From the NCBI GenBank assembly GCA_964464485.1, contig CAYXGH010000001.1, forward strand, positions 1,370 through 38,112: 36,743 nt of DNA. The letters are read 5' to 3'. Source of the DNA: an uncultured Nitrososphaera sp. Its GTDB lineage: Archaea > Thermoproteota > Nitrososphaeria > Nitrososphaerales > Nitrososphaeraceae. The notes under the pieces are model-generated. The model ran no database searches. It was not told the DNA's origin and saw only the letters and a list, made by a program, of their open reading frames with translations. The position numbers and the translations under genes were made by a program. This document shows positions 6,183-17,985 of this stretch, piece after piece; the stretch's first letter is position 1, and each line of letters begins with the position of its first letter.

Positions 6183-6446
6183 CTACTTTTTGGTGGCTTT
6201 TTCATACATTTTCAGTAGCTGCTGGATGACACCATCCATGTCGTCCTCCCTTACTTCCGGCGAAACTGCATGTTTAAGTAAATTACTTACAGTGTTGGAG
6301 ATCTCAGAACTCACTTCGTCAAAGCTATCCACGTCACTATAGCTCTGTTGATAAAGCCTCCTCAATCGCATTGCATACATGTGTGTCTGTTCATTCATTG
6401 TGACGTCATAGCTGCGATTGTTGACCTTTATCTTCTCCTTTATCAT
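6183..6446 (-). CDS. Hypothetical protein (87 aa)
   Basis: Clean ATG ORF co-oriented with thrC, with a TTTTTAAAG TATA-like box upstream on the minus strand. Confidence 0.75.
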   Translation of the reverse strand: MIKEKIKVNNRSYDVTMNEQTHMYAMRLRRLYQQSYSDVDSFDEVSSEISNTVSNLLKHAVSPEVREDDMDGVIQQLLKMYEKATKK

Positions 6447-6627: not shown

Positions 6628-7278
6628 ATGCCATTTGATAACAGGTGGATAAAGCCACAAGGAGAAAGCGTTGGTCACAAATTGCTTGAGGGCATCAAGC
6701 CACAAGCACCACTGAAGCCAAGGATAGAAGAAGCACAGAAAAAGTTGCATATGCAGATCGCGAGGCTGGATGCAATAGCCTCAAGGATGCAAGAAAAAGA
6801 TAAGCTAATTTTCAAGCGAGTAGTGCTTGCGATGCAGAGTCACGATTCTTCGCATGCAAAGATCTTATCAGGAGAGCTGTCGCAGATCCGAAAGATGAAC
6901 AAGATGGTCACGTCAGCAAAGCTAGCTTTAGAACAGATACAGCTTAGGCTCAACACAATGACAGAGCTTGGAGACGTAGTGGTAACTCTGAGCCCCGCAA
7001 TGTCAGTCATAAAGGGATTGCAAAGCGGATTATCAGGAATGATGCCGGAAGCAGATCAGTCATTTGGACAAATATCCGAGCTGCTTGGAAACATTATGAC
7101 AGACTCAGGACAGATACCGAACAGCGAAATTGCAAACTTCAACACAATAAACGAAGACACGGCACAGATAATGGAAGAAGCCAGCACGGTAGTAGAAATG
7201 AACATGAAGAACAAGTTCCCAGATTTGCCTTCTCCAAACCTGGCAGCTGCAAAGAACTTAGAGGCAACAAGCTACTAG
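6628..7278 (+). CDS. Snf7/ESCRT-III (CdvB-family) cell division protein
   Basis: Helical coiled coil with KLALEQIQLRLNTMTELGDVVVTLSPAMSVIKG and C-terminal KFPDLP, typical of thaumarchaeal CdvB paralogues; the specific paralogue cannot be assigned. Confidence 0.9.
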   Translation: MPFDNRWIKPQGESVGHKLLEGIKPQAPLKPRIEEAQKKLHMQIARLDAIASRMQEKDKLIFKRVVLAMQSHDSSHAKILSGELSQIRKMNKMVTSAKLALEQIQLRLNTMTELGDVVVTLSPAMSVIKGLQSGLSGMMPEADQSFGQISELLGNIMTDSGQIPNSEIANFNTINEDTAQIMEEASTVVEMNMKNKFPDLPSPNLAAAKNLEATSY

Positions 7279-7288
7279 ATCTAGCCCA

Positions 7289-7636
7289 TTAGCTCTCTCT
7301 ATATTTTTTGCTTGCTATTTTTTGAACTTGTTTTTTTATCCTAGATATTGTGGGGTAGCTATAACCTTTTTCCCTGTAAGTCTTGATCATGGCCTTCCAA
7401 TTATTTAGCCGCCAATTTGCTTGATGCTCTGTGAGCGAGAGCGTTTCTCTTTTCACGAGACTCTTTCGCCCCGGCATCAAATACCCGCCGCTTTCAGCCA
7501 CATAGCGGCTATATGCAAAGCGCAGTCCAAAGAGCAGGTCATTAGGGGGAAGCGATCTAATATACAGCACAATTTCTCTACTTTGCTCTTCTGACAGGTC
7601 TAGCTTGAACATAAATTCCCTTACAGGCATATGCAT
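7289..7636 (-). CDS. Hypothetical protein, basic, possible C-terminal HTH-like segment
   Basis: ORF probably starts at MHMPVREF (7636) or MPVREF (7630) after a TTTTAAAG box; the longer 7729 start overlaps bioF; C-terminal YREKGYSYPTISRIKK. Confidence 0.7.
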   Translation of the reverse strand: MHMPVREFMFKLDLSEEQSREIVLYIRSLPPNDLLFGLRFAYSRYVAESGGYLMPGRKSLVKRETLSLTEHQANWRLNNWKAMIKTYREKGYSYPTISRIKKQVQKIASKKYRES

Positions 7637-7665
7637 CGGCAGTACCCATTCTGTCTTTAAAATGT

Positions 7666-7691
7666 TATTTCTAAACTCGAATTTAGAAATA
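7666..7691. repeat. 26-bp palindrome copy 1 (TATTTCTAAACTCGAATTTAGAAATA)
   Basis: 25/26 identical to copy 2; 3 bp downstream of the bioF stop. Confidence 0.9.
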
Positions 7692-7694
7692 TTT

Positions 7695-8858
7695 CTATAA
7701 GATGCCTGTCTTTTTGCCCGCTCTTTCAAATGCCGCTACCGCAGAATCCAAGTGTTCTTGGCGGTGCATGGCATTCAGTGAAATTCTGAGGCGAGCATGA
7801 CCCTTTTTCACCGTCGGATACCGAATTGCTTGAGCAAAAACGCCCTCCTCTAGCAGCTCTTTAGACAGCTCTAGGGCCTGTACTTCTTTACCTACTATGA
7901 TTGGAATTATCTGGCTTGTAGAGTTTCCAAGTTTAAATCCCAGCCTTTTGATTGTCTCTGAAAAATAGAGGATATTCCATTGAAGCCTCTTTTGCAAATG
8001 TCCACTCTTTGCTATTGGAATAGCGGTAATTGCTGCAGAGCATAGGTGGGCAGGTAGGGCGGAAGTATAGATAAATTGCCTTGATGTATTGATCAACAGT
8101 TCTCTAATGGGGAATGTAGTGGCTACATAGCCTCCAAAGCAACCCAACGCCTTACTCAGACTGCTGACATGGATGTCAAAGTTTACTCCCATTTTAGCTG
8201 GCATGCCTGAAAAGGTGGGGCCAAAGATAAAGTCACCATGTGCATCGTCAATGATGGTTATTGCATCATGATGGTCTGCTATGCTCTGTATTTCTGATAG
8301 GTTTCCCATATCCCCGTCCATGCTAAAGATACCTTCCGTTATCACAATTTTTCTGCCTGGGCTGCGCTGCATTAGTTCTTCTAAATGATCGGTGTCATTA
8401 TGCCGGAAGATGACAATTGTTGCACCACACAGCCGGCATGCATCCACTATGCTAGCATGGTTCAGCTCATCGCTAAATATCGTCGAGTTCTTGTCTGCAA
8501 TTGTCGTTATTACGCCCAAGTTAGCAGTGTAACCTGTAGGATATAGAAGGGCTGATTCTGTCCTACGGTGGTATGCAAGCAGACCTTCAAGCTCGATGGT
8601 TTTTGGATGGTTGCCTGCAATTAACCTTGAGCCACACTGTGATACTTCTTCACTCAGTGCCGTAATAGTTTTCTTGATTACTTGCTTGTTTTGAGAGAGC
8701 CCGAGATAGTCATTGGAGCAAAGATTGATGACCTCCTTGCCGTCGACATTGGCCGTCGGACCCCTAGCAACCACGGTCCTAAGACGACGATATAACCCAC
8801 TCTTTTCAAGAAAATCAAGTTGATCCTTAACGAAGGTGGTCTTATGGCTTGAGCCCAA
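7695..8858 (-). CDS. bioF: 8-amino-7-oxononanoate synthase
   Basis: CSNDYLGL, GSRLIAG, SDELNHASIVD, EGIFSMDGD, DDAH, SLSKALG, AIRYPTV. Confidence 0.95.
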   Translation of the reverse strand: MGSSHKTTFVKDQLDFLEKSGLYRRLRTVVARGPTANVDGKEVINLCSNDYLGLSQNKQVIKKTITALSEEVSQCGSRLIAGNHPKTIELEGLLAYHRRTESALLYPTGYTANLGVITTIADKNSTIFSDELNHASIVDACRLCGATIVIFRHNDTDHLEELMQRSPGRKIVITEGIFSMDGDMGNLSEIQSIADHHDAITIIDDAHGDFIFGPTFSGMPAKMGVNFDIHVSSLSKALGCFGGYVATTFPIRELLINTSRQFIYTSALPAHLCSAAITAIPIAKSGHLQKRLQWNILYFSETIKRLGFKLGNSTSQIIPIIVGKEVQALELSKELLEEGVFAQAIRYPTVKKGHARLRISLNAMHRQEHLDSAVAAFERAGKKTGIL

Positions 8859-9825
8859 TTTGTTTTATCATCGCAATGTCCTTTTTGGCGGTGTTTCCTC
8901 CCGTAGTCAGGTAGCCGCCGGTGATAATACCATTTGCTCCTGCCTTGAGAGCCAGTTTATCATTATGCTTCAGATGCACCTCCCGTCCACCAGCTATCTT
9001 GAGAATAGTTTTTGGCAGTATGAAACGCCACACTGCAATTGTCTTGATTGCCTCAAGAGGATCCATCGGCTTAAGACTCCCAAGTGGAGTCCCTTCTCTA
9101 CCTATCAGAATATTGATGGGAACTTCTTCAGGGTGGAGTGATGCAAGAGAGAAGGCTAGCTCTAGCCTCTGTTTAGGAGTTTCACCCATACCTATGATTC
9201 CCCCAGAGCACAACTGTAATCCTGCCTCCTTGACAATTTTCGCAGTGTTTACTCTGTCAGAGAAGTCATGCGTATTGCAGATATTAGAAAAATAGCTCTC
9301 TGCAGCTTCTAGGTTATGGTTGTAACGCTTGACTCCCAGCTTCTTTAGCTTTCTCGCCCTATCTAATGTTATAAACCCCAAAGAGACATTGACTTCGATA
9401 TCCAATTTGGATCTAATCTCTTCTATCGCTTCACAGATCTGTTGAAAGTCCTTCTCGGGCGGATCTCTGTAAGCACATACTAAGCAAAAACTTGTTGCCC
9501 CCCCTTCCTTGGCCTTTGCTGCCTTCTCGACCAACTCTTCTTTAGGCAATAAAGGATATTTGTTAATTCCAGTATTGTAGAACGAGGATTGTGCACAAAA
9601 TGAGCAGTCCTCTGGACACCTACCGGATTTTGCATTTACCAAGGCTTCGACATCTACCCTATCACCGTTAAACGTTCGAGTAATAGTATTAGCACAGTCA
9701 GCAAGCAGCATGATGTCATCGGTGCCAAGCAGACCCTCTGCTTCTTCAAAGGTGATTGAGACACCGGCGAGTACTTTCTCCGTACAACGCTGAAGGAAGG
9801 CCGAATCCGTCATAACATCAGGCAA
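8842..9825 (-). CDS. bioB: Biotin synthase (radical SAM)
   Basis: CPEDCSFCAQS, YNHNLE, CSGGIIGMGE, VPIN, AGGRE, GGYLTT. Confidence 0.97.
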   Translation of the reverse strand: MPDVMTDSAFLQRCTEKVLAGVSITFEEAEGLLGTDDIMLLADCANTITRTFNGDRVDVEALVNAKSGRCPEDCSFCAQSSFYNTGINKYPLLPKEELVEKAAKAKEGGATSFCLVCAYRDPPEKDFQQICEAIEEIRSKLDIEVNVSLGFITLDRARKLKKLGVKRYNHNLEAAESYFSNICNTHDFSDRVNTAKIVKEAGLQLCSGGIIGMGETPKQRLELAFSLASLHPEEVPINILIGREGTPLGSLKPMDPLEAIKTIAVWRFILPKTILKIAGGREVHLKHNDKLALKAGANGIITGGYLTTGGNTAKKDIAMIKQIGLKP

Positions 9826-9875
9826 GTCAGAGCCGGTAATTAAAATTTCTGTCCGAAAGCCTTATTCTAGGGAGC

Positions 9876-9901
9876 TATTTCTAAATTCGAATTTAGAAAT
9901 A
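9876..9901. repeat. 26-bp perfect palindrome copy 2 (TATTTCTAAATTCGAATTTAGAAATA)
   Basis: Perfect 12+CG+12 dyad, extendable by GAG/CTC after one mismatch; 50 bp upstream of the bioB start. Confidence 0.92.
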
Positions 9902-10312
9902 TCTCGTCACAGTTTGTATGCCGCGTATTCAGACCAAGAATTGAAATACTCTCCAATATGGAATCATGCAATGTCCTCTTAATTGTACAGCCACTGCATC
10001 GAACAATGATTCATTATCACTTCTAGTATCAGTCCAAAGCCTTTGGGCTCGTACACCTAATCAAAATAGGCCATTTTGACTTGCTGCCAGCAGCAGTCTC
10101 TGCTGTGATTCAAAAGATATTCGAGGAAAGAGGATCTTTTTTAAAGAAAAATCCATGTTTTATAAATCTAATAAGTTACATACTTTTTAAAAAACAAGGT
10201 TAAAGGGGGGCTCCGCACAGCCAAAAAGACCCAACGGTTGATAGATCATTTCTTGCTAGGTGTGGAAAGGAGAGATGACGCTTTTCGTTACATAATGGGA
10301 GATTGCAAAACA

Positions 10313-10428
10313 GTTCAAAAATGGAACGCTTTTTATACGGCATAAAAAAGAGTACCTTTTTTTTACTCTTGGTTTGTCCTAGCTAATGATCAAGACGTCC
10401 ATTTATTTGCACTACCCTTTTTGAACAC
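10313..10428. promoter_or_regulatory. Putative res-like recombinase-binding array
   Basis: Three imperfect dyads directly upstream of the serine recombinase: GTTCAAAAA..TTTTTATAC, GCATAAAAAAG-AGTAC-CTTTTTTTTAC and GTCCATTT..TTTTTGAAC. Confidence 0.4.
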
Positions 10429-10476
10429 TTTTCTTGACAAGGAGGTATAATTATATTGGAGCACCTAGAAGGGAAT

Positions 10477-11061
10477 ATGAAATATGCCTTTGCATACCTG
10501 CGTGTAAGCACAGAAGAACAGACTGTCCAGAATCAGAAGCTTGCTCTTGAAAAATGGGCACATGGAAACAATTACTTAATCCTGGACTCTTTTGAAGATC
10601 CTGCTATAAGTGGTAAGGTTCCCGCCACCCAAAGACGCGGATTTCAAGAAATGCTTGAGCTTGTAAAAATGACTGGAGTAGACGCCGTTTTAGTTTATGA
10701 GTTGTCACGCGTTGGAAGAACTTTCTGGGATACGCTAGATGCGATAAAGGCAGTAGAGCACTATGCCTCTTTGATTTCATGCTCACCCCGAGAATCATTT
10801 CTCCAAACCACAGAGTCCAGTATCAGAAAACTTATGATTGGTATCCTGACATGGGCTGCCGAGAGAGAACGTGAGCTTCTAGTCCAGAGGACAAAGGATG
10901 GCATGGACCGGGCCAAAGCTGCAGGAAAAGGCATTGGTCGGCCTCAAAAGATAATTGACAAGGATAATCTCATCACCCTGCTTGCAGAAAATCACTCGAA
11001 AGCAAGAATAGCGAAGAGTCTTGGCATCTCAAAAGCTACGCTGTACAAGAAATTGAGCGAG

Positions 11062-11070
<9 letters not shown>
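10477..11070 (+). CDS. Small serine recombinase (resolvase/invertase, Hin/Pin/Tn3 family)
   Basis: YLRVST catalytic Ser, QTVQNQ, DPAISG, LSRVGR, ERERELLVQRTKDG, GRP and C-terminal HTH SKARIAKSLGISKATLYK; ATG 10477 after a TATAATTATA box (alternative TTG 10456). Confidence 0.95.
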
Positions 11071-13672
<2,602 letters not shown>

Positions 13673-13724
13673 GGATATTGCATAGAAGCTACGTTTATTA
13701 AATCTGTCATAGACTACTGACTAC

Positions 13725-14156
13725 ATGGCTAGAAGGATTGCTATCGGTCTCCTTATTGCCTCTCTGATACTCCTGATAGTCTACGGAGCTGATGTAGCAG
13801 TTGCGGCATCATCCTCTCCCGAGATAGAGGGTTTCTTGCCTTTTGACGAGGCGGTTAGAGGGGGAGCCTTTGGCGGGGGCGCAGTCGTAATGTCAATAAT
13901 TGCATTCGTAATCGCTCGCAAGGAATATGCCCCTGCTGTTTCTGTGCTCTTGTTTGTTAACGGGGGCCTCATCGTTGCGGGAATGGTTGCGCTTGTTGCA
14001 CAGGGCGCACTTGCATCAGAAGATTCCTCAAGCACATTACGCACAATCGGCTCTACAATAGTAATGGGAGGAATCCTAGTAGGGCTGGGAGCATGGAAGC
14101 TTGTAACAGACAGAAAAGTACTCGCTACAAGGAGAAAAGAGCCGGCTCAGAAATGA
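13725..14156 (+). CDS. Membrane protein with about 4 TM segments
   Basis: Four hydrophobic stretches, basic C-terminal tail, TTTATTAA box upstream. Confidence 0.8.
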   Translation: MARRIAIGLLIASLILLIVYGADVAVAASSSPEIEGFLPFDEAVRGGAFGGGAVVMSIIAFVIARKEYAPAVSVLLFVNGGLIVAGMVALVAQGALASEDSSSTLRTIGSTIVMGGILVGLGAWKLVTDRKVLATRRKEPAQK

Positions 14157-14356
14157 AAAAGTGTATCAGTTCCGGACCTTACGCATGATGGACCTTTAAA
14201 GCAAATCCTAATGACTACAAGGTCTGTGAAAGATGGCGTCGGCCTCGATACGGGCATTTCGTCTTTACAATCCATGAAAGAAAAACCATCATGCGCGCGT
14301 GTGCCTGTACCCTAGCGAGTAACATTTTATACAATCTTGGTAAGTTAATTGGTGTC

Positions 14357-15040
14357 ATGAAGGCAGTAATTCTTGCTGGTGGTTTTGGAAAAAGGCTAAA
14401 GCCCCTTACCGACACAAGACCTAAGCCCATGATAGAGGTCTTAAATGTCCCAATTATCGAATGGCAGGTAAGATGGCTTAGGAAATTTGGCATAAAAGAT
14501 TTTGTCGCATGCGTGGGATATATGAAAGAGCAGATAATTGACCATATTGGCAACGGCGCCAGGTTTGATTCCCGAATCGACTATTCATTTGAGGAAAAGG
14601 CCCTCGGAACTGGTGGGGCACTTTTGAATGCGAAGGAGCTTGTATCCAACCAAGATTCATTTTTCGTGCTAAATGGAGATATTCTTACACAGCTTGACCC
14701 AAACAGGTTGAATATTGCAAATTCAAATGTCCTTGCGGTTGTTCCTCTCCGCAGCCAATTTGGAGTGGTTGAACTTGATGTGAATTCAACAGTCCGTGGA
14801 TTTATTGAAAAGCCAGAAATCCCTGACAGGTGGATTAACGCTGGCTTGTATCGCCTTACTCAAGAGGTTTTTAGATATCTGCCCCAAGAAGGCAACATCG
14901 AGGTTACTGCTCTGCCGGCACTAGCAAAAGAAGGAAGGCTCCAAGCTGTGAGATACAAAGATGTTTTCTGGCGCTCAATTGATTCTCACAAGGACATCGA
15001 GGAAGCATCCAAAGAGATGAAGGAAGCAAAACCATTATGA
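14357..15040 (+). CDS. NDP-sugar nucleotidyltransferase (mannose-1-phosphate guanylyltransferase-like)
   Basis: MKAVILAGGFGKRLKPLT..PKPM, LGTGGA, NGD, FIEKP, INAG. Confidence 0.92.
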   Translation: MKAVILAGGFGKRLKPLTDTRPKPMIEVLNVPIIEWQVRWLRKFGIKDFVACVGYMKEQIIDHIGNGARFDSRIDYSFEEKALGTGGALLNAKELVSNQDSFFVLNGDILTQLDPNRLNIANSNVLAVVPLRSQFGVVELDVNSTVRGFIEKPEIPDRWINAGLYRLTQEVFRYLPQEGNIEVTALPALAKEGRLQAVRYKDVFWRSIDSHKDIEEASKEMKEAKPL

Positions 15041-16017
15041 CTGCGGAAAAGCTGGGATACAGTCTCGGTCCCCTACTGTCCATGCATGAGATTCTTCTAT
15101 GCGCCAAGATAGCTGATCAGCAAGAAAATGTTGATTCATTATGGGTTCCGGAATCTTGGGGCCGAGAGTCATTTTCTACTCTTGGTGCCATGTCTCAGAT
15201 CACTAAAAAAGTACGGCTTGGGACGTCGATTGTTAACATTTATTCTAGGACGCCTGCAACTGTTGCCATGGCGGCGACCACCCTTGACATGCTTTCAAAT
15301 AAGAGGACAATTATCGGTCTTGGAGCAAGCACTGCAGCTATTGTTGAAAACTGGCATGGTGTACAGTTCAATAAGCCTGCCAGCCGTATGAAAGAGTACA
15401 TTGATTGCCTCAGGCTCATCAATAGAGGCGAAAAGGTAAAATATAATGGCGAATTTTTCAAAATAAACAATTTCAAGATATTGCACCGTCCCCAAAGAAC
15501 GCATATCCCAATTTTTATGGCCGCTGTCAACAAAAAAATGGTCTCTATCGCATCTGAGCTTGCGGATGGCACATTATTGTATTTGAGGCCGTTTGAAGAA
15601 TTGAAAAGGATCACAAGTGAATTGAAGCAGGCTACAAAAGGAAAAGGCTTTGAAATTGCTTGCTCTTTTATATGCGCGATATCGAATAAAGACCCAGAAA
15701 AAGCCAGAGATCGCGCAGCGACAACTCTTGCGTTTTATGTTGCAGTTGGAAAGTACTATAGCAAGTTTCTTGCAGAGAATGGCTTCAAGACTGAAGTTGA
15801 GGAGATAAATGCAGAGTATAGAAAGGCAGGTGCAAATAGTGCAGCAAAATTTGTTTCTGATAGGATGCTTAGCTCACTTGTAATTTGCGGTAGCAGCGAA
15901 GACTGCAGAGAATCACTTTCAAAATTTCTTTCGACAGGAATTACCCTACCCATTCTCCAGTTTAACCCTGTTGGTGACTCAGAAAGCTCATTTAAGGAGA
16001 TGCTATCAACCTTCTAG
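15037..16017 (+). CDS. LLM-class flavin/F420-dependent oxidoreductase (Mer-like)
   Basis: WVPESWGRE, LGTSIVNIYSRTPA, GLGAS, IPIFMAA, ADG; ATGA overlap with the upstream gene. Confidence 0.9.
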   Translation: MTAEKLGYSLGPLLSMHEILLCAKIADQQENVDSLWVPESWGRESFSTLGAMSQITKKVRLGTSIVNIYSRTPATVAMAATTLDMLSNKRTIIGLGASTAAIVENWHGVQFNKPASRMKEYIDCLRLINRGEKVKYNGEFFKINNFKILHRPQRTHIPIFMAAVNKKMVSIASELADGTLLYLRPFEELKRITSELKQATKGKGFEIACSFICAISNKDPEKARDRAATTLAFYVAVGKYYSKFLAENGFKTEVEEINAEYRKAGANSAAKFVSDRMLSSLVICGSSEDCRESLSKFLSTGITLPILQFNPVGDSESSFKEMLSTF

Positions 16018-16018
16018 A

Positions 16019-17116
16019 ATGCGCAAGGTAGCAGTGTCCTCATGGGCAACCTCAACATTTACCAAAGGCTCAAAGATGTCTTTATTTGAGCTGGCCTGTG
16101 AGCCTTCAGTACAGCTAATAAGGGAGAGCGGCATTTCTGCAAAGGAAATTGATGCTGTCTTGTTTTCTAGCTGTGCGACTGATCAATATAGCTCTGCGAT
16201 AATATCTGAAATGCTTGGTATACATCCAAGGATTTCATATCGCATAGACAATCTCTGCAATTCAGGCACCAATGCTGTGGCTTCTGCTTTTGCAATTATT
16301 GCGTCCGGTTTATGTAATACGGTACTCGTCGTTGGCGCAGAAAAAATAGACAGCCCTGGTAACAAGCTGTTGTGGGACGTCACTCGGGGATCTTTTATGT
16401 TTCCAGTACACTGGGCCGCAATATTTGCGAAAGCCCACATGAGAAAATACGGCACAACTGAAGAACAGATGGCTATGGTTTCTGTTAAGAACCATAAAAA
16501 CGCCACTAAAAATCCTCTCGCCCTTTTTGGAAAGGAAGTTGGCTTACAAGAAGTGATGAATTCAAAAAAGATAGCCTCTCCTATCAAACTACTAGACTGT
16601 TCTGCCCCATGCGAGGGTGCCTCTGCGATACTATTAGTATCTGAAGAAAAAGTACGCAGTCTAGACAACCCTGTCTTTATAAAGGGAATAGGTCAGCAAA
16701 CAACCTCAGCCAGCTTTGCAAAAGCGACAGCTGACCTCACAACAATTGAGGCGGCCAGGCGGGCCGCTCATTCAGCTTTTGAGATGTCGCATATAAAACT
16801 ATCGCAGATAGATGTGGCAGAACTGCATGATGCTTTTACAATTCTTGAAATCTTGGCATATGAAGACCTAGGGTTTGCAAAGAAGGGCGAAGGAGGAAAA
16901 TTCGTCAACCAAGAGCAAATAGTGATAAACCCAAGAGGAGGTATAATTGGATGCGGCCATCCTGTCGGAGCCACTGGCGTGGCGCAAGTTGCCGAAATCA
17001 CATCTCAGCTTGCTGGGAAAGCGGGAAAGAGGCAAGTAAAGAACTGCAAGACCGGGCTTGTTCACAATCTAGCTGCAGCTGGCTCTTCAGCGTCAGTGAT
17101 TGTCATGGGTGTGTGA
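16019..17116 (+). CDS. Thiolase family protein (archaeal/SCP2-type acetyl-CoA acetyltransferase)
   Basis: NLCNSG catalytic Cys, VKNHKNA..NP, ELHDAFT, GHPVGATG, HN. Confidence 0.92.
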   Translation: MRKVAVSSWATSTFTKGSKMSLFELACEPSVQLIRESGISAKEIDAVLFSSCATDQYSSAIISEMLGIHPRISYRIDNLCNSGTNAVASAFAIIASGLCNTVLVVGAEKIDSPGNKLLWDVTRGSFMFPVHWAAIFAKAHMRKYGTTEEQMAMVSVKNHKNATKNPLALFGKEVGLQEVMNSKKIASPIKLLDCSAPCEGASAILLVSEEKVRSLDNPVFIKGIGQQTTSASFAKATADLTTIEAARRAAHSAFEMSHIKLSQIDVAELHDAFTILEILAYEDLGFAKKGEGGKFVNQEQIVINPRGGIIGCGHPVGATGVAQVAEITSQLAGKAGKRQVKNCKTGLVHNLAAAGSSASVIVMGV

Positions 17117-17462
17117 TGATCTCTTGCAGGAGTTCATTGAAAACTTGAATAAAGGTGAATTTCGGCTGCCAGTCTGTACCTCCTGCAAGGCTAAAGTATG
17201 GCCGCCATCTCGTTATTGCCCTCTATGTCTTTCAAAGACATCACTTCAAATTATTGATACTAGCGGAACTTTGGTACATTTCACACAGTCATACCTCAAA
17301 GGCATGGAAGGTTGCTATGGTCTTGTTGAAATGTCAGGAATTAAACTCATTGGATCGTTTGAGACCTTCGAATTGAGAGAGGGCTTAAAGGTGAAAATGG
17401 TCAGGTGCGGGGTGAGGCCAGATGGGATTCCATATTACTTTTTTAAACCAATCACGGGCTGA
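17100..17462 (+). CDS. DUF35-type Zn-ribbon/OB-fold thiolase partner
   Basis: CTSC..WPP..CPLC followed by an OB-fold-like segment; overlaps the thiolase end. Confidence 0.85.
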   Translation: MSWVCDDLLQEFIENLNKGEFRLPVCTSCKAKVWPPSRYCPLCLSKTSLQIIDTSGTLVHFTQSYLKGMEGCYGLVEMSGIKLIGSFETFELREGLKVKMVRCGVRPDGIPYYFFKPITG

Positions 17463-17505
17463 CATTAATATACGCTAGCGAATAACCCTCTAGGATGGAT
17501 ATACC

Positions 17506-17865
17506 ATGAGTTATGACCGGTTCGTTGACGATAGGCTCCTTACAAGCCGTGATGCTCTCAACAGGCTGCAGATTAAAATGAAAGTACTTCAAATTGACGA
17601 AAATGCCCGTGATTTTTCACAGCGCTTTGGGCGCAGGGTGCTTGTCCAAAAGGTACTTTTGACTATCAAATACAATGATACTGAAGAAATCGAAGAGAAG
17701 GAGCTTGACGTAGAGGAGATTGAAAAGAGGATAAGAAAAGAAAGGCTCTTCAGTTCGTCGAATCGCTGGCTTGCTTCAAGTGATATCAAGAATGGTTATG
17801 TGGTTGCAAGCCATCACCTCGATTTGCTTGCTGACGCGATTGCGCTTGATATAATTTCGATATAA
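17506..17865 (+). CDS. Hypothetical protein (119 aa)
   Basis: Clean ATG ORF with TTAATATA upstream; protein-like composition. Confidence 0.75.
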   Translation: MSYDRFVDDRLLTSRDALNRLQIKMKVLQIDENARDFSQRFGRRVLVQKVLLTIKYNDTEEIEEKELDVEEIEKRIRKERLFSSSNRWLASSDIKNGYVVASHHLDLLADAIALDIISI

Positions 17866-17868
17866 GAA

Positions 17869-17894
17869 CATTTCAAAAATCGATTTTTGAAATA
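17869..17894. repeat. 26-bp palindrome copy 3 (CATTTCAAAAATCGATTTTTGAAATA)
   Basis: Perfect 24-bp inner dyad; 21/26 identical to copy 2, with 4 of the 5 differences compensatory; 3 bp after a stop codon. Confidence 0.8.
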
Positions 17895-17985
17895 TTGCGT
17901 TAGGAGCTTGTTCACCTATACCCAGGGGTTTTAGGCTAAAACCTATGATGGACTCCAAAAAGAACAATTATGATTATAATCATAG

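Follow-up and report, generated by a model that had tools for sequence, protein, structure and literature searches.

The window analysed here, a stretch of 36,743 nucleotides from an uncultured Nitrososphaera sp. (contig CAYXGH010000001.1), contains cdvB, a small orphan gene, bioF, bioB, bioA and bioD, a serine resolvase gene and the end of a large ribosomal-protein operon. Three copies of a palindrome lie in the gaps between genes. This palindrome, which also occurs in the genomes of other ammonia-oxidizing archaea (AOA), is the subject of the analysis.

7665..7692, no strand: palindrome copy 1, the 28-bp unit with core CTCGAA
9875..9902, no strand: palindrome copy 2, perfect, with core TTCGAA, between the divergent bioB and resolvase locus
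17868..17895, no strand: palindrome copy 3, with core ATCGAT, between the convergent gene at 17506–17865 (plus strand) and the ribosomal-protein operon end

The original prediction described these copies as 26-bp intergenic palindromes, and the three 26-mers are all present where it placed them. Copy 2 is indeed a perfect palindrome, copies 1 and 3 each sit 3 bp past a stop codon, and all three are intergenic. Copy 1 overlaps only a mechanically extended open reading frame (ORF) at 7289–7729 with a TTG start, and it is counted as intergenic because homologues of the orphan gene start near 7630–7612. The operon gene that ends beside copy 3 is presumably rpl6-like, on our own reading of the sequence. 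In the 1,406,062 bp of the assembly (84% complete) there are only these three matches at up to six mismatches, and five block shuffles gave no match at the same threshold. With a 41-bit matrix of the motif, the three copies score 32–43 bits and everything else in this assembly scores at most 8 bits. Rfam and tRNA scans of the window gave no match.

The conserved unit is 28 bp long, ATRTTTCWDAA-YTCGAR-TTHWGAAAYAT, with an 11-6-11 layout and about 41 bits over 143 distinct sites; the matrix itself was made from 144 distinct 42-mers, one of them a chance match. TTTC, AA and the central TCGA are nearly invariant. The 143 sites lie between tandem genes (73), divergent genes (27) or convergent genes (19), inside mechanically called ORFs (17), or at an edge (7). 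A matrix scan found no weaker copies and none outside the cluster in G000 or in 1.215 of the 1.232 Mb of G220. The prediction had named no described element with this consensus, and the motif strings likewise matched no paper found; subscription papers and supplements were outside the scope of that search, so a prior description is possible.

Changes between the copies had been read as compensatory, and as a sign of selection on dyad pairing. Copy 3 does differ from copy 2 at positions 1, 7, 11, 16 and 20, with the pairs 7/20 and 11/16 symmetric, but selection on pairing is not borne out. At the variable positions, one-sided changes are as frequent as paired ones. Paired changes are above chance in the pooled sites, but the excess is not significant after half-sites are permuted within genus (lowest p 0.05–0.06): position 7 has 93 paired sites against 94.6 expected, and position 3 has 92 against 84.6 (p = 0.06). 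Because this permutation removes the excess, most of the apparent compensation is lineage preference, and any leftover pairing could stem from template switching in palindromes. The two arms vary independently, as expected of a protein-bound site, and the symmetric half-site pattern makes it very probable that the palindrome is bound by a protein.

The motif was found in 162 of 166 genomes of four AOA families in an order-wide sample (70 of 73, 73 of 73, 10 of 11 and 9 of 9) and in none of 134 genomes from 16 sister families. A reversed-pattern control had matches in 2 of 301 genomes. Of 151 family genomes, 139 have the motif (G077 and G099 among them are unpublished). A class-wide sample gave 157 of 158 genomes of the four families and 0 of 1 of a fifth family in the order, while the 2 of 41 genomes with matches in other orders each had a lone one-mismatch match within an ORF. 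An exact scan of GTDB returned at least 156 stretches; among the 80 listed, 77 are AOA or thaumarchaeal by name and three are unspecified archaea. The motif is a sharp marker of the AOA clade. Genomes have one to five copies, with two to five in all 25 complete or near-complete chromosomes. Pairs of sites 59–82 bp apart recur in family 2 just beyond the ribosomal operon (for example L067:12482–12563).

Chromosomal position was determined in 24 single-contig genomes and the main contig of G283, all taken as circles. The origin was placed at cdc6 because origin recognition box (ORB)-like boxes are found there and the strand skew of G220 switches there. We took the ORB motif to be TCCAGTGGAAA plus a G-string beside cdc6. 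In 8 of 10 loci the main cdc6 has such boxes next to it, and the remaining two loci are truncated by the contig start. The palindrome is elsewhere and different in sequence, which rules it out as an origin box. A single origin is stated in PMC4010727.

In all 25 chromosomes the sites form one cluster, spanning 0.08–12.3 kb, at 0.396–0.492 of the circle (143–177 degrees) from cdc6. The standard deviation (SD) of this position is 0.022, compared to 0.074–0.078 for the genes of EF-2, IleRS and ValRS and 0.051 for the orphan gene. For the means of 16 genera, the SD is 0.018 for the sites and 0.070–0.083 for the control genes (Levene p ≤ 0.004). The cluster is usually past the end of the ribosomal operon. 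In two genomes the operon is 225 and 398 kb distant, and there the sites are nearer the antipode than the operon is (0.491 vs 0.311 in G321, 0.456 vs 0.388 in G295). In G220 the skew switches at cdc6 and again at about 613–620 kb, and the sites are at 577–578 kb. Genes at 579–613 kb in this one genome keep the same replichore skew as at the sites, and forks therefore pass the G220 sites. A Ter/Tus-type fork trap or fork-meeting point is contradicted, for G220 only, by the skew switch beyond the sites. The ribosomal-protein operon and the genes behind it in this genome (G220:C1:579000–613000) have a lagging-strand signature, head-on to the fork and near the terminus.

The gene next to copy 1 encodes a candidate for the binding protein.

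7289..7630, minus strand: orphan basic protein of 107–113 amino acids, isoelectric point 10, all-helical, convergent with cdvB, single copy

The motifs GRKS and YRxxGYSYPTISRIK are nearly invariant in this protein, which is present in 161 of 166 AOA genomes versus 0 of 134 sister-family genomes. A site is found 31–41 bp upstream of the gene in families 1, 3 and 5. In the window, the edge of copy 1 is 36 bp upstream of the likely start, with a TATA-like TTTTAAAG abutting it (7662–7655, minus strand). In three lineages, a change from S to Y, H or M in the PTISRI helix accompanies loss of the 'TA' half-site, which is retained in 1 of 28, 0 of 30 and 1 of 4 cases. The C-terminal GYSYPTISRIK resembles, we assume, the turn and recognition helix of a helix-turn-helix, for which database and fold searches gave no confirmation. 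The protein had no sequence match in Pfam, NCBIfam, PHROG or PDB, and Foldseek and VIA-align searches with two models gave nothing significant (the top Foldseek rows, at E ≥ 1.7, include the Tn1549 integrase). The model has a predicted local distance difference test (pLDDT) value of 88, and its best Z of 6.2 (root-mean-square deviation 2.2, 58 aligned residues) is to an unrelated helical domain. The ESM Atlas gave one match at 0.75, below lead level, and a representative protein library gave 45 relatives and a few weak long matches. A homodimer prediction of 0.21 gave no verdict and is not used as evidence. With less than even confidence, the orphan protein is put forward as the best candidate for the palindrome binder.

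The palindrome is not confined to chromosomes. The exact motif was found in 57 stretches of IMG/VR, 55 of them from one family of 4.0–4.75-kb contigs (some counted twice); the other two matches, one phage-like and one plant-virus-like, appear to be chance. The elements (L358–L568, from IMG/VR and metagenome contigs) form an abundant family of about 4.3 kb with genes on both strands, and terminal direct repeats indicate that many are circular. Five of the 32 IMG/VR circles with the site (L510, L536, L549, L553 and L568) have the palindrome within the overlap of their assembled ends, which may be an assembly effect or a real end. No Rep or integrase was recognized in the circles, since 11 representative proteins had no Pfam or PHROG match at E ≤ 0.001, and no published account of the family was found.

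Among the elements of at least 3.9 kb that were found by protein similarity, 32 of 77 in IMG/VR and 15 of 45 in metagenomes have the site. It is usually between two divergent gene blocks, flanked by TATA-like words and 30–32 bp from both starts (32 of 32 scored copies), while four circles have it where genes converge, alongside the other type of promoter. The 77 IMG/VR elements divide into 32 with the palindrome site, 38 with an alternative promoter palindrome, none with both and seven with neither. Site presence is patchy on a quick tree, with 14 changes compared to 22 when shuffled (42 of 70 rows). The circles also gave matches to ORB-like words, which were set aside because they were scattered and had one mismatch. 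No integrated circle was found in 401 genomes (a one-protein query without a positive control) or among 80 metagenome contigs. Integrative mobile elements exploiting Xer (IMEX), whose integrated copies are flanked by two host sites, and small phages that integrate at dif are also small circles with one host-like site and no recognizable integrase; the present circles differ in having no integrated copy found, and in a site that is optional and usually in a divergent promoter. An AOA host is suggested only by the motif and the promoter geometry.

Several observations suggest rearrangement at the sites. Comparison of two genera of family 3 shows an inversion of the segment bounded by the outer sites, and the switch in homology falls within the sites themselves (one complete genome compared to two assemblies), and in circle L360 a segment is inverted between two sites, although this is a single contig in which misassembly is possible. 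Two of eight soil sequencing runs, X3 and X12, which represent close strains, have copy 1 with its core reversed in place (7676 C>T and 7681 A>G), unlike X1 and X2. Breakage at site junctions versus site-free gaps of at least 60 bp was 0.33/0.28, 0.43/0.27, 0.60/0 and 0/0, all from non-independent pairs. There were no site-to-site joints among the matches listed from eight soil runs, which were available as contigs only, and contigs lose rare variants. Loose ends at copy 1 in four of the soil runs look like other AOA that share the 26-mer. Matches to PF00589 were found in 23 of 26 genomes, at scattered locations; none were above the cut-off in five site-bearing genomes, a test that a divergent enzyme could escape.

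The other features around the sites in the window are the following.

6628..7278, plus strand: CdvB/ESCRT-III paralogue, best NCBIfam match CdvB1/B2, below the curated cut-off; usually adjoins the orphan gene
7695..9825, minus strand: bioF–bioB, bracketed by copies 1 and 2 here, unlinked to sites in most family-2 loci
10277..10430, plus strand: res-like array of A-tract inverted repeats, immediately 5' of the resolvase gene, with a motif distinct from the palindrome
10477..11070, plus strand: small serine resolvase (Resolvase and HTH_7 domains), in 18 of 18 family-1 genomes

No gene was common to all of the site loci compared, and related genomes have sites in differing gaps, convergent ones included. 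The bioB gene keeps a site-to-start distance of 64–68 bp. The case made earlier against a biotin-only operator holds, because the flanking genes differ between families. The resolvase was not found in the other three AOA families (0 of 131, 0 of 6 and 0 of 3 genomes; 0 of 140 together), and a PF00239 family search gave 0 of 5 there. The res-like pattern was found in 23 of 25 family-1 upstream regions (some genomes counted twice) compared to 16 of 300 random windows, with the caveats that it was derived from the same upstream regions and that the automatic alignment is informative only in the last 200 bp. Since among the four AOA families the resolvase was found only in family 1, that of Nitrososphaera, and has its own res-like array, it is not a general partner of the sites; it is a candidate for a chromosome-dimer resolvase that would replace XerA. 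Homologues of the resolvase in two complete genomes of other orders (G156:C1:793835–794407 and G169:C1:736929–737510) are 49.7–49.8% of the circle from cdc6. A gene for a small Lys/Arg/Ala-rich, histone-H1-like protein adjoins the site in some family-2 genomes (L044:1599–1970, L046:1572–1955). The window also encodes further conserved orphan proteins with no Pfam match (17506–17865, 13136–13672 and 6183–6446), and likely homologues of these three, recognized by eye, are 18–27 kb from the G220 sites. SMC was found in site-bearing and site-free genomes alike.

The palindrome can be likened to matS, to a terminus-side parS and, in its geometry, to dif, and it fails one defining test of each. In E. 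coli, matS is a 13-bp site with 23 copies over the 800 kb of the Ter macrodomain (PMC3330122). The AOA site resembles the matS/MatP system as a palindrome confined to the terminus region with a presumably dimeric binder, and differs in being 28 bp long and in having one to five copies within 0.08–12.3 kb. As with parS/ParB, a few palindromes are clustered at one chromosomal address, but parS is described as mostly origin-proximal (PMC7333895) and the AOA cluster is opposite the origin. ParB_N was found in three of four site-bearing genomes, the exception being G220, and also in the site-free G285. Among the centromere-like sites of Sulfolobales, that of AspA is reported to be a 23-bp palindrome directly upstream of a small DNA-binding protein gene (PMC5120986). 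The AspA and SegB binders are of the winged-helix or ribbon-helix-helix (RHH) kind. The AOA palindrome is similarly upstream of the gene for its candidate binder in families 1, 3 and 5 and not in most of family 2; unlike the AspA and SegB sites, it is chromosomal and terminus-side, has no ParA/SegA gene among its conserved neighbours, and has a candidate binder with no solved-fold match.

The best reading, which we hold at slightly less than even confidence, is that the palindrome would be an AOA-specific docking site that organizes the terminus, working like matS/MatP or like a terminus-side parS. On the sequence evidence, the original prediction's suggestion that the palindrome is recognized by a dimeric DNA-binding protein acting at the level of the chromosome is supported as a reading. 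A dimeric, sequence-specific protein would bind it, and in this way the late-replicated region would be marked or tethered when the chromosome segregates and the cell divides. In three of the four families, the orphan protein would in addition repress or adjust its own promoter, and the circles would make use of this host protein either to switch their two divergent gene blocks or for partitioning. A fuller version of this scheme is possible but doubtful: AOA, being without XerA, may run a terminus system in which the orphan protein encoded beside cdvB binds the palindrome cluster, coupling the last-replicated DNA to ESCRT-based division or unlinking sisters, and circular viruses may have captured the site to read or ride the host cell cycle.

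A number of observations weigh against a docking site at the terminus. The comparison of positions involves three control genes only, and related genomes are not independent. The cluster is always 14–310 kb short of the antipode, and the G220 sites are some 36–40 kb away from the skew switch. In four of six genomes in which operon and sites are separated (by 14–65 kb in these four), rpl6 is slightly nearer the antipode than the sites are. As for the binder, most family-2 genomes have no site at the orphan gene, which is 60–430 kb off in some of them. The covariation with half-sites amounts to three changes, and there are exceptions: in family 5 the S is retained although 0 of 10 sites have 'TA', and G064 is another. 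The co-distribution of protein and motif is weak evidence, because any AOA signature gene would show the same. Finally, the 11-6-11 layout and the inversions in family 3 and in L360, which end inside sites, fit recombination at least as well as docking, and the way the site is placed in the promoters of the circles is what a plain operator would show.

The layout and the inversions belong to a dif-like explanation, in which an AOA enzyme would resolve chromosome dimers or catenanes near the terminus by cutting at the 6-bp core, and the site would serve the circles for attachment. It corresponds to the recombination sites that the original prediction gave as an alternative, and it is the main rival of the docking site, though we consider it rather unlikely. 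As described, dif is a single-copy 11-6-11 inverted repeat (PMC8371274); the AOA site shares this layout with archaeal dif/XerA, along with a late-replicated position that is conserved despite rearrangement. Thaumarchaea are listed as lacking xerA in the survey that puts the dif of Thermococcales 122–142 degrees from oriC, and these distances mean that an off-antipode position is allowed for a dif-like site (PMC2958812). The reversed core of copy 1 in X3 and X12 and the somewhat more frequent breakage at site junctions also favour it, as do the 41 bits, by our estimate about twice what is required for finding a few sites. On the other hand, the AOA site is multi-copy where dif is single, and its two to five copies often have identical, self-complementary and nearly invariant cores, which would carry a risk of deletion. 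No shared tyrosine recombinase was found above the PF00589 cut-off in the five genomes searched, nor a PF00239 enzyme in five from the other families, and at this location family 1 already possesses a resolvase that has a res-like array of its own. The searches for integrated circles and for site-to-site joints described above came back empty within their limits, over half of the circles have no site, and ordinary recombination or template switching between repeats would give the same inversions.

The promoter geometry raises the improbable alternative that the palindrome serves as operator for a transcription regulator shared by all AOA, whose very small regulon is late-replicated by chance, and that the circles would use it for timing their structural genes. 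Both in the circles and at the orphan gene, a TATA-like box directly adjoins the site, and the site-to-start distance is conserved for some genes such as bioB. Among the chromosomal flanks, however, a TATA-like word is at the best offset in only 23 of 555, with no start-codon peak; the flanking genes vary between families and share no function, and 19 of the 143 sites are between convergent genes. The two genomes scanned whole had no copy outside the cluster, and in four circles the site is at a convergent junction, with a promoter of the other type next to it. An RNA hairpin or terminator, a repetitive extragenic palindromic (REP)-like repeat or a replication fork barrier is very hard to reconcile with the data. 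The palindrome can fold as RNA (−5.8 to −7.0 kcal/mol), stop codons precede two of the copies and the ribosomal operon runs towards a site, but covariation is absent once lineage is controlled for, the TCGA that would form the loop is conserved more strongly than any other part, there is no Rfam match, and forks pass the G220 sites. The genome-wide REP-like family or 3'-end hairpin offered originally is also not supported, given the one to five copies in a single cluster, found in tandem, divergent and convergent gaps alike. Least probable of all is a crossover site for the adjacent serine resolvase: the resolvase lies within the cluster in family 1, but the other three families retain sites and no resolvase was found in them, and a different conserved array is directly upstream of the resolvase gene.

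Archaeal terminus organization and segregation have been described as a largely open question (PMC5120986). The 28-bp motif, together with its map position and a candidate for the binding protein, makes this question directly testable in culturable AOA. The motif also points to AOA as possible hosts of the tiny marine virus-like circles.

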